Origin: Candidatus Woesearchaeota archaeon
GTDB lineage: Archaea > Nanobdellota > Nanobdellia > Pacearchaeales > UBA284
Length of the DNA: 64,000 bases
Assembly (NCBI GenBank): GCA_964396475.1
Contig: CAYNFE010000001.1
Span: 1,205-65,204, forward strand
Reading direction: 5' to 3'
The notes beneath the pieces were generated by a model, which made no database searches, was not told the DNA's origin, and was given only the letters and a program-made list of their open reading frames with translations. This document shows positions 17,185 through 24,965 of this stretch, piece after piece (within the stretch, counting starts at the first letter, position 1; the number at the start of each line of letters is the position of its first letter). The position numbers and the translations under genes were made by a program.

Positions 17185-17245
17185 TACTTAGGGAACCCTT
17201 AGTAAACAAAAGAGGAGAACATGAAAAAAACTGATACCCTAAGTA
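17185..17245. promoter_or_regulatory. Putative serine-recombinase binding/crossover site
   Basis: TACTTAGGG-AA-CCCTTAGTA near-palindrome (17185-17204) plus a third half-site CCCTAAGTA (17237-17245) inside the gene start. Confidence 0.45.
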
Positions 17246-18579
17246 CACAAAAATCAAGTTCTAATTCTTCTAATTTACCTAAAGCTGCCATATATGTAAG
17301 AGTCAGTACAGCAGAACAAGCAAAAGAAGGCTTCTCTTTAGCTGCTCAAGAAGACACACTTAAAAATTATGCTAAAACTCTTGGCTATAACCTTTACAAA
17401 ATCTATAAAGATGAGGGTAAATCAGCCAAGGACATAAAACATAGGCCAGCCCTTAAACAACTTCTAGAAGATGCAGAAAATAAAAAGTTTCAAGCAATAT
17501 TTGTTTACAAGCTTGACAGATTCAGCAGAAGTCTCAAAGATCTTATACTAACAATAGAAAAACTAAAAGAGCAAGAAATAGACTTTATCTCCTTACAAGA
17601 TAAAATAGAAACAGCAAGTGCATCAGGAAAACTAATGTTTCATATCATAAGCGCATTTGCAGAATTTGAACGAGATATAATAAGTGAGAGAACAAAGTTT
17701 GGAATGACAGAGAAAGCAAAAGAAGGAGGAATAGTATCAAAAGCTCCTTTAGGCTATGAAATACAAAACAATAAGCTAGAGCCAGACAATAACAAAGAAA
17801 AGGTCAAGGAAATCTTCAACACTTTCATAAACAAAGATATAAGTCTGACAAAACTAGCTAAACAATATAATTTGACAACAAGAGGTCTGACAAAACTGCT
17901 AAAAAACACAACTTATTTAGGAAAAATCAAGTTCAAAGGCTCTTATCAAGGAAATCATGAACCAATAATAACTCAAGAAATATTCAATAAAACTCAGGAA
18001 AAACTAAAACAAATTTCATTACAAAGAAAGCTCATAAAAAACTTCAATCTTCTCAACAAAGTTCTAGTTCAAGGAGATTCTAGATATTATGATCCTTATT
18101 TTATGAAAATTATTGCTTACTTTATAGCTAAGAAAGCAATAATAATAGAACAAAAACCAATAAAAGACATAAAAGAGCCAAAAGATAAAGAACTAGATAT
18201 CAAAAATCTCAGAGAACCTCAAAAATTAGCAAAATTCATCGCTTACAAACTATTAAAAGATCAAGAATATGAAGATAAAGATATATTTTTCGAAAGAACT
18301 TATAATGATGAAAGACCTGATGTTTCAGCAAAAGAAATATTCATAGAGTGTTTTTCATGCAGAGTTAATAAAGTAATTTCTTACCTAAACCAAGACAAAG
18401 AGCTATGGATCCTTACATCAGGCTCTTATCCATGGGAAAAAGAACCACTAGCAGAACCAATAAAACATTATATTCTTAAACAAGGCCCTGAATGGAATTC
18501 CCTATATCAAGAATACAAAGATAAATTAAATAAAGCACTAAAAGAATCAATAAACAACTCAGATCTTCTCAAATTCTAG
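17221..18579 (+). CDS. Serine recombinase (catalytic + recombinase domain) fused to a C-terminal PD-(D/E)XK-like domain
   Basis: YVRVST, YKLDRFSR, FAEFER, APLGY, HEPII; C-terminal FFERTYNDERPDVSAKEIFIEC. Confidence 0.85.
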   Translation: MKKTDTLSTQKSSSNSSNLPKAAIYVRVSTAEQAKEGFSLAAQEDTLKNYAKTLGYNLYKIYKDEGKSAKDIKHRPALKQLLEDAENKKFQAIFVYKLDRFSRSLKDLILTIEKLKEQEIDFISLQDKIETASASGKLMFHIISAFAEFERDIISERTKFGMTEKAKEGGIVSKAPLGYEIQNNKLEPDNNKEKVKEIFNTFINKDISLTKLAKQYNLTTRGLTKLLKNTTYLGKIKFKGSYQGNHEPIITQEIFNKTQEKLKQISLQRKLIKNFNLLNKVLVQGDSRYYDPYFMKIIAYFIAKKAIIIEQKPIKDIKEPKDKELDIKNLREPQKLAKFIAYKLLKDQEYEDKDIFFERTYNDERPDVSAKEIFIECFSCRVNKVISYLNQDKELWILTSGSYPWEKEPLAEPIKHYILKQGPEWNSLYQEYKDKLNKALKESINNSDLLKF

Positions 18580-21665: not shown

Positions 21666-22025
21666 TTATTTTTGCCCAGCTTCTGCTCTTCTATAAGTTA
21701 AAGGCATGGCATATTTTTGTTCAACTTTTGCTTTTTCTATCTTTGCCTTTTCTTCTTCTTGATCTAATGCTGATGGTTTCTTAACATAAACTTTTAATTT
21801 TTGTGAATTTGTATCCTCAAGTTTTCCACCAGCATTAAATATATGAATTTTAATCCCCCCACCAGCTTCTTTTGTTTCAATAGCGCTTAGTTCCATTTCC
21901 GCATGGGCTTCATCTCTTTTACAAAAAACAAAACCCCGTTCTTCTATTCCTTTGTTAACTTGTTCTAAAAAAGAGCTTACGAAATCTTTAACAGGGCTAC
22001 CAATATTTAATATCTCATTTGCCAT
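21666..22025 (-). CDS. Trypco2-like domain protein (start revised to 22025)
   Basis: FVSSFLEQVNKGI...EMELSAI...GGGIKIHIFNAGG...QKLKVYV resembles trypsin-co-occurring domain 2. Confidence 0.5.
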   Translation of the reverse strand: MANEILNIGSPVKDFVSSFLEQVNKGIEERGFVFCKRDEAHAEMELSAIETKEAGGGIKIHIFNAGGKLEDTNSQKLKVYVKKPSALDQEEEKAKIEKAKVEQKYAMPLTYRRAEAGQK

Positions 22026-22029
22026 TTTT

Positions 22030-22185
22030 TCAACAAACCCCCAATACACCAATCAAAAATAGTAACGCTATAATTAAATAAAGCCATTTATTTGCCAAGA
22101 ATAATGCTCTAATTTGTGGTATGGCCAACATCCCAATTATAACAAAAAATCCCACAATTGCGCTTATTTGCGAGACACATATCAT
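22030..22185 (-). CDS. 51-aa two-TM protein (below ORF-track cutoff)
   Basis: MICVSQISAIVGFFVIIGMLAIPQIRALFLANKWLYLIIALLFLIGVLGVC; GGTGA RBS; 1-nt and 4-nt gaps to neighbours. Confidence 0.7.
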   Translation of the reverse strand: MICVSQISAIVGFFVIIGMLAIPQIRALFLANKWLYLIIALLFLIGVLGVC

Positions 22186-22186
22186 T

Positions 22187-22444
22187 TTATCTCACCCTTC
22201 TCCTTCTGTAAATTACCTCGCCAACGATTCTACCATAAGATCTTCCTTTTGGTCTTATTGTTACTGTTTTTCCTTCCAGCTTTTTAAGTTTGTTTTTAGC
22301 TTCCAAGTAACCAGATTGCCTTCTTTCCGGCGCATTAATGTTAGGCAATCTCACATATCGCGATCCATGAAGGCTTCGACTAAGTTGAAGAGTATCTCCG
22401 TCTACAACTGTCTGAATTTTTCTTCTATATGATTTTTTTTGCAT
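22187..22444 (-). CDS. Minimal SNase/thermonuclease-like nuclease, no signal peptide (start revised to 22444)
   Basis: VVDGDTL, VRLPNINAPE, SYGRIVGEV. Confidence 0.8.
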   Translation of the reverse strand: MQKKSYRRKIQTVVDGDTLQLSRSLHGSRYVRLPNINAPERRQSGYLEAKNKLKKLEGKTVTIRPKGRSYGRIVGEVIYRRRRVR

Positions 22445-22573
22445 TTTTATCACACTCTTTTGTAAAAAAAGAGATGTAAAATCTAATGCTATCAACTATA
22501 TAAATCTTTTGGGATTCCATTTTAAAATTGTAATTTCCGAGTAATTAGTAATATTTAAAAACTTAGTTTTATT

Positions 22574-23227
22574 ATGATTACTATGATAAAAGAGGTAAAA
22601 GGAAAACGAGTTATTATTTCAACTTTTTACGAGGGATATGCTATAAAGGCAGCAATAACAAAGTTATCACCTAATAAAATTATATTGTTGATAGATGAAC
22701 CAGTAGAAACTAAAAAAAAAGAGAATATGTATCAAAGACTAAAATCACTTAAAGATTTTTACAAAGGAACAAATACAAATATTTTAGATATTGAAACAAC
22801 GAAAATTGTATCTTATGATATTCCAAAAATAATAAAGGAAGTCTTAAAAAAAATAGATGAAGAATCAAAGCAAGGAAGCGAAGTAATTATCCATATAACA
22901 GAAGGAAGAAAAATAACCTCTCTCGCACTTTTATTTTCAGCATATATGAAAAAAGATAAAGTGATAGAAGCTTACTATATCACAGAAGAAAAACATGATC
23001 TTATTAAATTACCTTTACTAAATTTTCAGATTAATGAAACAAAAAAGGAACTATTAAAAGAAATAGCAAAAAACCATTTTAATTTTAAAAAACTAATGAA
23101 AAAAGCAGGTATAAAACAAAGTGCTTTGTATCAAAATATTAAGGAGCTTAAACAAGAAGGTTATATTCAAAACGGAAAAAATAAAAAATTAGAGCTTACT
23201 GAGCTCGGGAGGATTATAAATTCATGA
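22574..23227 (+). CDS. CARF + wHTH transcriptional regulator (Csa3-like)
   Basis: Rossmann-like N-terminus with IIHITEGRKITSLAL; C-terminal HTH QSALYQNIKELKQEGYI. Confidence 0.8.
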   Translation: MITMIKEVKGKRVIISTFYEGYAIKAAITKLSPNKIILLIDEPVETKKKENMYQRLKSLKDFYKGTNTNILDIETTKIVSYDIPKIIKEVLKKIDEESKQGSEVIIHITEGRKITSLALLFSAYMKKDKVIEAYYITEEKHDLIKLPLLNFQINETKKELLKEIAKNHFNFKKLMKKAGIKQSALYQNIKELKQEGYIQNGKNKKLELTELGRIINS

Positions 23228-24276
23228 AAAAAGTAGGCAAATTTAAAAATAAAATCTTCTATGAAGATGCTAGAACTATGAAAAATATTAAAGACAATTC
23301 TGTTGATTTAATGATTACTTCTCCACCCTATCCTATGATAAAAATGTGGGATGAAATGTTTGGAAAACAAAATCCAGAAATAACTAAGTCGTTAAAAGAG
23401 GAAGATGGAGAAAAAGTATTTGAATTAATGCATAAAGAGTTAGATAAGGTTTGGAAAGAAGTGCATAGGGTTTTGAAAGTTGGGGGAATTGCTTGTATAA
23501 ATATAGGAGATGCTACTAGAAGCTTAAATGGAAAATTCCAGATTTATACTAATCATTCAAGGATACTCAATTATTGCTTGAGCTTAGATTTTCACGCTTT
23601 GCCTTCTATTCTATGGATTAAAGAAACAAATAAACCAGATAAGTTTATGGGTTCTGGGATGTTGCCTGTTGGTGCTTATGTGACCTTAGAACATGAACAT
23701 ATTTTAATTTTAAGAAAAGGAAATAAAAGAAGGGAATTTAAGAAATCTGAGGAAAGATTAAATAGACAAAAAAGTGCTTTTTTTTGGGAAGAAAGAAATA
23801 AATGGTTTTCTGATAAATGGAAAGATGTTAATGGAGTTTTACAGAAACTTAATGATACAGAACTTAGAAAAAGAAGTGGGGCATATCCATTTGAATTAGT
23901 TTATAGATTGATTGCTATGTTCTCTGTTCAAGGAGATATTGTTTTAGACCCCTTTTTAGGAACAGGAACAACAACTCTTGGAGCTATTGCCCTCGCAAGG
24001 AATAGCATAGGAATAGAAATAGATAAAAATTTTAGTAAGATTATAGGGAAAAGAATTAAGGGCATGCTCAATATTGTTAATAGATATAATAAAAATAGAT
24101 TAGAGAAACATAAGGAATTTATTAAACAAAGAGAACAAGAAAAAGGAAAATCAAAATATTTTAATAAAAACTATAAATTTCCTGTTGTAACAAGACAAGA
24201 AATTAATCTATTAATTCCAAAATTAAAAGACATAAAAAAGATTAAAGAAAATATTTTTGAAACAGAATATATTTAA
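23224..24276 (+). CDS. Beta-class DNA methyltransferase, probably N4-cytosine
   Basis: Catalytic TSPPY precedes SAM-binding DPFLGTGTT. Confidence 0.92.
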   Translation: MKKVGKFKNKIFYEDARTMKNIKDNSVDLMITSPPYPMIKMWDEMFGKQNPEITKSLKEEDGEKVFELMHKELDKVWKEVHRVLKVGGIACINIGDATRSLNGKFQIYTNHSRILNYCLSLDFHALPSILWIKETNKPDKFMGSGMLPVGAYVTLEHEHILILRKGNKRREFKKSEERLNRQKSAFFWEERNKWFSDKWKDVNGVLQKLNDTELRKRSGAYPFELVYRLIAMFSVQGDIVLDPFLGTGTTTLGAIALARNSIGIEIDKNFSKIIGKRIKGMLNIVNRYNKNRLEKHKEFIKQREQEKGKSKYFNKNYKFPVVTRQEINLLIPKLKDIKKIKENIFETEYI

Positions 24277-24905
24277 GAAAGTCTTTTTATCTCTTGTTTT
24301 ATTTCATCTATTACTTCTTTATTAGCGATTATTTTCTTTTTTGTATTCTTATCTTTTACTGAAAATATATAAAAAACATTTCCACCATATTTTTTCTTGA
24401 ATTTTTTGTGTGTAACCTTTTGTTGTGTCCTTTCGTTTATTATTTGTGGCATATATTCATAACCTATTGGTTTAATTTGAAGTCCGATATACTTGTCTTT
24501 AATCTTAATAAAAAAATCTACATTGTAACCTCTATCCCATTCGTCTGGAGCAGGCTCTATTTTAACTTTAAGAATATCTTGAAGTTGTCCATATATTGTT
24601 TCTTTCTCAGAAACATAACCATCATAAGTTCTGTTTATAACAAGATTAATAACAAAATCTGTACAATCTTGTTCTGTAATCTCATCAATTTCAGCTCGAA
24701 TAACTTCACTTATTTTTATATATAATTTTTTTCCTAATTCTATAAGATGTGTTTTAGGTTTGACATTTTTGTAATAATAATTCTCCCAATCTTTTAACTT
24801 CTTAGGAGAGCATTTTCTTATTTCTTCAGCAACAGCTCCAACCTGTGTTTTCTTATTTAAACCCCAACGCATATTTGCACTATTCAAAACCCATTCTTTT
24901 GGCAT
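24273..24905 (-). CDS. Type II restriction endonuclease, MjaI family
   Basis: RWGLNKKTQVGAV...WENYY, WDRGYNVDF...GLQIKP; convergent with the MTase. Confidence 0.8.
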   Translation of the reverse strand: MPKEWVLNSANMRWGLNKKTQVGAVAEEIRKCSPKKLKDWENYYYKNVKPKTHLIELGKKLYIKISEVIRAEIDEITEQDCTDFVINLVINRTYDGYVSEKETIYGQLQDILKVKIEPAPDEWDRGYNVDFFIKIKDKYIGLQIKPIGYEYMPQIINERTQQKVTHKKFKKKYGGNVFYIFSVKDKNTKKKIIANKEVIDEIKQEIKRLS

Positions 24906-24965
24906 AGAAATATCAAGAAATCCTGCCTTTTAACCCCTCCTACTAACCTTTAACGTACCAGAGAA

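Follow-up and report, generated by a model that had tools for sequence, protein, structure and literature searches.

A Csa3-type CARF regulator tied to restriction-modification genes in CRISPR-less archaea: a candidate local controller on a conserved 0.7-kb module

We analysed a window of 64,000 nt from Candidatus Woesearchaeota archaeon (contig CAYNFE010000001.1 of assembly GCA_964396475.1, positions 1,205 to 65,204 of the forward strand) and followed up a gene encoding a 217-aa regulator of the Csa3 family, a protein that joins a CARF domain to a winged helix-turn-helix (wHTH) domain and whose gene overlaps the DNA methyltransferase gene of a type II restriction-modification (R-M) system. 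CARF sensors are known almost solely in the role of receptors for cyclic oligoadenylates made by Cas10, and R-M systems are usually treated as constitutive or as timed by controller (C) proteins. Here a Csa3-type sensor-regulator, its pocket included, is kept in lineages devoid of CRISPR-Cas and is tied to R-M and DNA-modification genes. The comparison of homologous loci showed that the conserved unit is a module of about 0.7 kb. The reading that we favour, with moderate confidence, is that the regulator is the built-in, local and ligand-gated controller of this portable module and of the R-M or nuclease cargo that is exchanged around it.

The source genome is 610 kb in size, with 31% G+C and 89.6% completeness, and the window is a part of its contig 1. 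A protein search returned 64 homologues with 46-62% identity to the window regulator. A scan of the GTDB genomes seeded with the single window protein gave no match, and the family alignment was needed as the seed; the scans seeded with this alignment yielded 14 genome loci and 53 metagenome loci. The homologous loci are drawn from Woesearchaeota, Pacearchaeota and Nanoarchaeota assemblies, which places the source organism among the DPANN-type archaea. Open reading frames (ORFs) were called in every locus and classed by iterated profiles and Pfam. Gene adjacency was counted in those 37 non-redundant loci of the core family that have 500 nt or more on the downstream side, the divergent neighbour in 39 loci with sufficient upstream sequence, and the control region was aligned over 45 non-redundant upstream regions. 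The distribution of the family is patchy (20 of the 401 genomes of the class and 19 of its 234 genera), and no member was found in the one same-genus and five same-family relatives sampled.

A DNA methyltransferase gene was found in the same-strand run behind the regulator gene in 31 of the 37 loci, and it is the very next gene in 27 of the 37. Of the remaining 193 ORFs with 150 aa or more in these loci, only 2 encode methyltransferases (Fisher p ~1e-24, a value that ignores kinship). The association seen in the window is therefore not a one-off. The cargo methyltransferases belong to five unrelated families, i.e. N6_N4, Eco57I/gamma N6, Dam D12, C5 cytosine and type I HsdM with HsdS. In most of 24 junctions the cargo ATG lies 1-4 nt past the regulator stop codon (TAAaATG), whatever the cargo is, and in the window the start of the methyltransferase gene overlaps the regulator stop as ATGA; the latter overlap and the ORF coordinates had been given in the initial annotation and were confirmed in the sequence. 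A conserved GGGAGG near the 3' end of the regulator gene was considered as a Shine-Dalgarno sequence and rejected, as it lies 11-16 nt from the cargo ATG and encodes a conserved Gly-Arg. In 12 of the 14 loci checked besides the window, a convergent gene stands tail-to-tail with the last methyltransferase gene (-26 to +4 nt). The convergent genes that could be identified encode endonucleases, which are of the MjaI family in the window and in locus L024, of the MvaI/BcnI type in L039, MutH/Sau3AI-like beside a C5 methyltransferase in L023, and matched by the PADLOC model REase_II in L022.

On the maximum-likelihood tree of the regulator, the cargo type switches at least 16 times over 39 tips, and C5 methyltransferases were acquired at least 5 times. 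When closely related loci with different cargo were compared by blastn, one long match of 76-86% identity was observed in each of seven comparisons, which begins about 40-105 nt ahead of the regulator gene, covers it and stops about 12-18 nt after its end, and outside this match only short isolated matches of 44-183 nt were found. We concluded that the conserved unit is a 0.7-kb module made up of the control region and the regulator gene. That the nucleotide sequence of the module is conserved while its flanks are unrelated suggests a way in which symbionts with very small genomes exchange their defence genes and express them.

The intergenic gap between the regulator ORF and the divergent staphylococcal nuclease (SNase)-like gene, whose ATG is at 22444, spans 22445-22573 and is 129 bp in length, as annotated initially. 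The alignment of the 45 regions revealed a fixed layout, which comprises, from left to right, a leftward transcription factor B recognition element (BRE) and TATA box (TTTAAATCTTTC on the + strand, conserved across loci), dyad 1 (tGGAATTTCCa), an A/T spacer of about 10 nt, dyad 2, whose first base follows that of dyad 1 by 19-20 nt, a rightward BRE/TATA element (aaGG TTTATAAA), and the ATG 29 nt further on. The two dyads, GGAA(T)TTCC, thus sit between the divergent BRE/TATA boxes, and their position relative to the TATA boxes is fixed. The distance from the TATA box to the ATG is 29-30 nt in most homologous loci; because the rightward TATA box of the window likewise starts 29 nt before the ATG at 22583, this codon (M4) is probably the real start of the regulator. 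The spacing points to leaderless or near-leaderless transcripts, which would provide a rationale for the translational coupling of the cargo. A scan for bacterial promoters and terminators and an inverted-repeat finder were uninformative for this archaeal promoter.

The density of the dyads was 5.9 per kb in the upstream 160 nt, compared with 0.34 per kb across all loci. A stringent dyad pair was present in 19 of the 45 upstream regions and in none of 200 shuffles, and at least one dyad was present in 32 of the 45, where 2.2 were expected. The 610-kb genome contains 3 paired sites, versus none in shuffles, and only the pair of the window is at a promoter; the other two are inside genes and were treated as chance. 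With a single promoter-located pair in the genome, the regulator looks like a local rather than a global one. The operator variants track the recognition helix: YQN occurs with GGAA/TTCC, YQH with GTAA/TTAC, YKN with GGAA/TTAC, and YKY with a different second site. This covariation, which is confounded by phylogeny, fits direct recognition of the dyads by the regulator.

These results bear on an explanation in which the adjacency is merely positional, that is, the regulator is a global or unrelated transcription factor similar to HFX_2341 that stands beside an integration hotspot gathering R-M and defence genes. The cargo on both flanks is indeed highly variable, the window has a serine recombinase gene 4 kb upstream of the cassette, and HFX_2341, the namesake of the best Pfam match of the regulator, is a global repressor (PMC11434293). 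We consider this explanation quite unlikely, since the paired operator is found at one promoter only in the genome, the conserved DNA block takes in both divergent promoters, and the cargo starts 1-4 nt after the regulator stop, or overlaps it, in most loci, a junction so tight that it argues for co-transcription and coupled translation and not for mere proximity.

The initial annotation had taken the protein for a Csa3-like CARF-wHTH regulator, and Pfam, NCBIfam, PADLOC and Foldseek agree on this. The best Pfam match for the N-terminal, Rossmann-like CARF domain was HFX_2341_N (36.1 bits, cut-off 30), and Cas_APE2256 was matched as well (31.6 bits, cut-off 24.8). The protein scored 66.1 bits against the NCBIfam Csa3 model TIGR01884, above the curated cut-off of 60.2, and 1.2e-50 against the PADLOC CARF3 model over the full length of the model. 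Its AlphaFold model (predicted local distance difference test, pLDDT, 87) shows three helices and then a beta-hairpin wing, and the top Foldseek matches of this model were the Csa3 structures 2wte, 6wxq and 6w11, with a sequence identity of about 15% only. A profile search of the PDB sequences did not reach Csa3; the fold search alone did. Residues 154-215 match several wHTH models of Pfam, each below its own cut-off, and the family profile matches the wHTH regulators PH1932 and HlyU in the PDB. No match of the regulator was found in PHROGs.

Among 32 homologues, the residues S16, T17, H107, T109, E110, G111, R112 and K113 are invariant or nearly so, and the pocket motifs after strand 1 (S16-T17-h-[YF]-E-x4-[KR]) and strand 4 (I108-x2-G111-R-K113) are kept. 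Their counterparts in Csa3, T-h-G-F-[ND]-E-x4-R and L-x2-G-h-R, form the lining of the pocket for cyclic tetra-adenylate (cA4) (PMC8699464). By a CARF-only profile, HITEGRK of the regulator aligns with NITGGTK, the CARF signature of the cA4 receptor Card1, and with NATPGLK of SSO1393. We concluded that fold, curated threshold and pocket motifs place the 217-aa protein in the Csa3/CARF3 family, and that its gene is not associated with CRISPR-Cas.

The conserved pocket motifs make a nucleotide-type ligand likely, and judged from them the regulator is probably ligand-gated. The whole genome, which is about 90% complete, was searched for Cas10 (Csm1 and Cmr2 models), Cas1, CRISPR arrays and CD-NTases, and none was found, so that the earlier remark that no CRISPR lies nearby holds well beyond the neighbourhood of the gene; in 11 other carrier genomes no Cas10 scored above the cut-off. 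SMODS matches were obtained in 9 of the 12 carrier genomes. The match in the window genome, however, is the archaeal CCA-adding enzyme (tRNA_NucTransf2 and CAA_C domains), and those in the eight other carriers come from open frames that, like it, measure about 430 aa; they were therefore rejected as cyclases. In the loci examined there is no conserved neighbour gene able to make a ligand. As neither a cyclase nor Cas10 was found, the cyclic-oligoadenylate reading is unsupported.

Two alternatives have to be weighed here. According to the first, the regulator is a classical Csa3 responding to cyclic oligoadenylates whose source is a type III CRISPR-Cas system lying in the ~10% of the genome absent from the assembly, or which are supplied extracellularly. 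The incompleteness of the genome and the conserved pocket motifs agree with this, and the closest structural relatives, 6wxq and 6w11, bind cA4 (PMC8844856, PMC8699464). We nevertheless regard it as highly improbable, in view of the lack of Cas10, Cas1 and CRISPR arrays in the window genome, the lack of Cas10 above the cut-off in all 11 further carriers, and the reported under-representation of CRISPR-Cas in DPANN archaea (PMC12988326). According to the second, the CARF domain is a dimerisation scaffold without ligand, and the protein is a plain autoregulator that buffers the methyltransferase dosage and aids the establishment of a mobile R-M system in a new host, in the manner of C proteins and of methyltransferases bearing a helix-turn-helix (HTH). 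The lack of a cyclase or other signal-producing gene in the 12 genomes and of a conserved neighbour able to make a ligand would agree with such a scaffold, the two-dyad layout upstream of its own gene resembles C-boxes, and the patchy distribution together with the swapping of cargo fits mobile cassettes that need establishment control. However, S16/T17 and H107-x-T109-E-G-R-K113 are invariant across homologues that are 46-62% identical to the window protein, and in alignment they coincide with the motif through which cA4-binding CARF proteins contact their ligand; their retention would not be expected in a domain that served only as a scaffold, and we judge this alternative rather unlikely. 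The retention of the pocket in these lineages implies either an unrecognised ligand with its signal source or a second, ligand-independent role of CARF-wHTH proteins.

For the favoured reading, a ligand-gated local controller, we propose the following mechanism. The module would consist of a bidirectional archaeal promoter region, the two GGAA(T)TTCC dyads and the regulator gene. Dimers of the regulator would occupy the two dyads that lie between the divergent BRE/TATA boxes, and this binding would control the transcription of two units, namely the apparently leaderless operon of the regulator itself and the divergent nuclease operon. The ATGA or TAAaATG junction would couple the cargo gene translationally to the regulator. 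Methylase dosage would depend on the output of the regulator-methyltransferase operon, whose transcription would probably run antisense into the convergent endonuclease gene that overlaps it. In the CARF pocket, a small nucleotide-like ligand other than a Cas10-made cyclic oligoadenylate of the cell's own would alter DNA binding. Archaeal sites upstream of the BRE usually activate; the position of dyad 1, which abuts the BRE of the nuclease promoter, suggests repression there.

Several points weigh against this reading. Six of the 37 loci have no methyltransferase behind the regulator, and five of these six carry instead a divergent gene resembling that for tRNA-guanine transglycosylase (TGT). 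The cargo of distant members of the family comprises PD-(D/E)XK and NucS nucleases, HsdM-type methyltransferases, NurA-HerA, an MBL-fold nuclease, DUF2779, Bro-N proteins and a KaiC-like ATPase, which indicates a link to defence and DNA-processing cargo generally and not strictly to R-M; in the clade that holds the window regulator, the link is for the most part with methyltransferases and R-M systems. Taken by itself, the window has no more operator words than chance would give (30 matches, 27 expected), and the significance of the operator therefore derives solely from the cross-locus comparison. The loci are phylogenetically related, so that neither the counts nor the covariation of helix and operator are independent samples. 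The searches of the window genome and the 11 carriers did not find a source of the ligand. Finally, the DNA binding of Csa3a in vitro is nonspecific and insensitive to cA4 (PMC8699464), and the relatives differ in sign, as Csa3a activates while HFX_2341 represses and acts globally (PMC11434293).

If the favoured reading holds, an archaeal control module coupled to a sensor would be a new regulatory class for R-M. A wider reading, which we hold only tentatively and find doubtful, is that the 0.7-kb unit is a portable, ligand-gated expression platform of CRISPR-less DPANN archaea, by which whatever cargo is recombined on either side, be it a methyltransferase, an R-M system, a nuclease or a transglycosylase, would become inducible by a nucleotide signal. 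This signal, not made by Cas10, could be an infection-derived or methylation-related metabolite, or a cyclic oligoadenylate from the host cell of the episymbiont. CARF signalling would then extend beyond type III CRISPR, and R-M would be an inducible immune arm rather than a constitutive one.

C proteins such as C.PvuII and C.Esp1396I, which are HTH proteins of the Xre type, are about 80-100 aa long and lack a sensor domain, and their gene precedes the endonuclease gene. The C-protein gene overlaps and is co-transcribed with the R-M gene, and two dyads stand upstream of it. The initial annotation had placed the regulator gene in the position of a C-protein gene, which stands only as an analogy of layout. 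The overlap with an R-M gene, the paired upstream dyads and a plausible control of dosage or timing in a mobile R-M cassette are shared, and the dyads are unrelated in sequence to C-boxes; here, by contrast, the regulator is a CARF-wHTH protein of 217 aa whose gene comes before the methyltransferase gene, with the endonuclease gene convergent on the other strand.

With Csa3, Csa3a and Csa3b of Sulfolobales the regulator shares the two-domain CARF-wHTH architecture, the fold and the pocket motifs. It differs from them in that its genome has no CRISPR-Cas system and that its gene heads R-M or methyltransferase cargo and not cas genes. The CAPPa site of Csa3a, TCCC-N8-GGGA, lies 12 bp upstream of the BRE (PMC8699464), and the sites found here are likewise palindromic and just upstream of BRE/TATA, with inner dyad halves TTCC-N10-11-GGAA. 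HFX_2341 of Haloferax mediterranei, the namesake of PF19810, is also a CARF-wHTH regulator; it is a global repressor of transport and cas genes, with homologues also in species without CRISPR-Cas (PMC11434293), whereas for the present family only one paired operator in the genome is located at a promoter, and the regulator is physically joined to its cargo. The BrxR-type WYL-wHTH regulators found beside diverse defence systems (PMC9122589) resemble it as sensor/HTH regulators heading varied defence cassettes, but they are bacterial and carry a WYL sensor domain, while the present regulator is archaeal, of Csa3 type, and on a 0.7-kb module with a bidirectional promoter. RtcR-like CARF-AAA+-HTH proteins adjoin R-M systems, and it was proposed in 2014 that CARF senses infection-derived nucleotides to regulate DNA restriction (PMC4012209); these are, however, bacterial sigma-54 activators with an AAA+ domain.

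The initial annotation had suggested second-messenger control of R-M and nuclease genes as a link not yet described. The regulatory link itself is supported by the methyltransferase adjacency in 31 of 37 loci, the tight junctions, the conserved dyads and the mini-SNase gene in 11 of 39 loci; control by a messenger of the cyclic-oligoadenylate type found no support, the check for Cas10 being negative in the window genome and the 11 carriers. In the literature searched, which did not cover the CARF census of 2020, there is no description of Csa3/CARF3 regulators heading R-M cassettes, so that the claim of novelty stands to this extent; on the other side, a PADLOC CARF3 model exists and the idea of 2014 had joined CARF to R-M for another architecture (PMC4012209).

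In the window cassette (Table 1), the methyltransferase is 350 aa long and matches N6_N4_Mtase of Pfam at 2.9e-39 and MTase_II of PADLOC at 1.4e-147; its SPPY motif fits an N4-cytosine methyltransferase. The coupling of the regulator to an R-M methyltransferase had been recognised initially, while the convergent endonuclease of the MjaI family was overlooked. This protein of 210 aa matches RE_MjaI of Pfam at 6.2e-45 and REase_II of PADLOC at 7.6e-29, and its gene overlaps the methyltransferase gene tail-to-tail by 4 nt at the 3' ends. An endonuclease of the RE_MjaI family thus adjoins a beta-class N6_N4 methyltransferase, as in MjaI-type systems, and the locus is a complete type II R-M system. 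At 24906-24940 there is a weak TATA-like TTAAAAG 28 nt before the endonuclease ATG; the operator-like word AGGATTTCT between this box and the ATG was too degenerate to claim. The recognition site of MjaI is CTAG. It is not avoided in the genome (1640 sites, observed/expected 0.99), and the most avoided 4-bp palindrome is GATC (observed/expected 0.62). Judged from these frequencies, the MjaI-like system may have arrived recently or be of different specificity.

Table 1. Features of the regulator module and its flanking genes in the window
Feature	Position	Strand	Evidence
128-aa protein	21666..22052	-	ORF list
51-aa predicted membrane protein	22030..22185	-	ORF list
Mini SNase-like gene, 85 aa from ATG 22444	22187..22444	-	Weak Pfam SNase match; recurrence across loci
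TATA box of the divergent nuclease promoter (putative)	22499..22506	-	Sequence read; BRE-like AAAAG beside the box on the minus strand
Operator dyad 1 (putative), GGGATTCC	22511..22518	.	Alignment of 45 regions; enrichment and shuffle tests; genome-wide pair scan
Operator dyad 2 (putative), GTAATTTCC	22530..22538	.	19 nt after the start of dyad 1; alignment, scans, shuffles
TATA box TTTAAAA of the regulator/methyltransferase operon (putative)	22554..22560	+	29 nt before ATG 22583
Csa3-family (CARF3) CARF-wHTH regulator gene	22574..23227	+	Family scans; alignment; structure model; fold search; CARF motif alignment
Type II DNA methyltransferase, N6_N4 class, SPPY motif	23224..24276	+	Pfam; PADLOC; sequence read
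MjaI-family type II restriction endonuclease	24273..24905	-	Pfam RE_MjaI; PADLOC REase_II; upstream sequence

On the divergent side, the mini-SNase has the motifs DGDT, APE and YGR, and a homologue of 83 aa matches PHROG 452, 'endonuclease', at 2e-7. The two small ORFs beyond it (21666..22185) gave only a weak Trypco2 match, and the 128-aa protein had no match in PADLOC. In related loci the mini-SNase gene (about 83 aa, 11 loci) is usually followed by small ORFs of 60-80 aa, and the two ORFs of the window are probably the distal genes of a divergent operon with the mini-SNase gene.

The divergent neighbour across the 39 loci is the mini-SNase in 11, a protein of about 295 aa in 13 and another protein in 12, with nothing callable in 3. 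The ~295-aa family (L016:6963-7844 (-), L010:6991-7869 (-) and 9 further aligned loci) has the TIM barrel of TGT as its predicted fold (model pLDDT 84), and each of the 50 best Foldseek matches of the model was a tRNA-guanine transglycosylase, with a template modelling (TM) score of about 0.68 and E ~1e-10. Its sequence matches are below threshold, with 23.1 bits against Pfam TGT (cut-off 26.3) in 4 of 11 members and 5e-5 against PADLOC TGT, and no match was found in PHROGs. On the strength of the model, and of its presence in five of the six loci that have no methyltransferase gene behind the regulator, the protein may be a DpdA-like transglycosylase that modifies DNA.

Some loci carry unusual cargo. 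The gene at L010:8686-11622 (+) encodes a fusion of 978 aa with four N6_N4 stretches, and that at L005:7524-10007 (+), also among the giant multi-methyltransferase fusions, encodes 827 aa with an N-terminal MarR-type wHTH and three N6_N4 stretches. A YhaM-like protein of 325 aa with OB-fold and HD domains is encoded between the regulator and the methyltransferases at L002:6626-7603 (+) and L007:8608-9582 (+); from its domains it could be a nuclease, or a phosphodiesterase acting on a nucleotide ligand. In L016:8607-13744 (+) and L051:8606-14743 (+) a regulator of the YKY-helix clade heads a type I R-M system, which is preceded by a Cas4-like PD-(D/E)XK nuclease in both and is accompanied in L016 by a NucS/DUF4268 protein and a Shedu SduA_C protein. 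In L017, L064, L065 and L103, which belong to a distant clade with about 40% identity to the window protein, the regulator is followed by a Bro-N protein and no methyltransferase, which hints at contexts derived from mobile elements or viruses.

The IMG/VR viral contigs were searched and contained no family member, and the idea of a viral anti-restriction module was accordingly left unsupported. Three family-bearing contigs, L015, L019 and L020, were binned as 'bacterium', Saccharibacteria and Bacillota, respectively; because L019 has the MjaI-type cassette of the window, mis-binned DPANN contigs are likelier than a transfer to bacteria. The serine recombinase gene upstream of the window cassette, at 17221-18579 (+), encodes a large serine recombinase, and together with the patchy distribution of the family it suggests that the R-M region lies in an accessory island.

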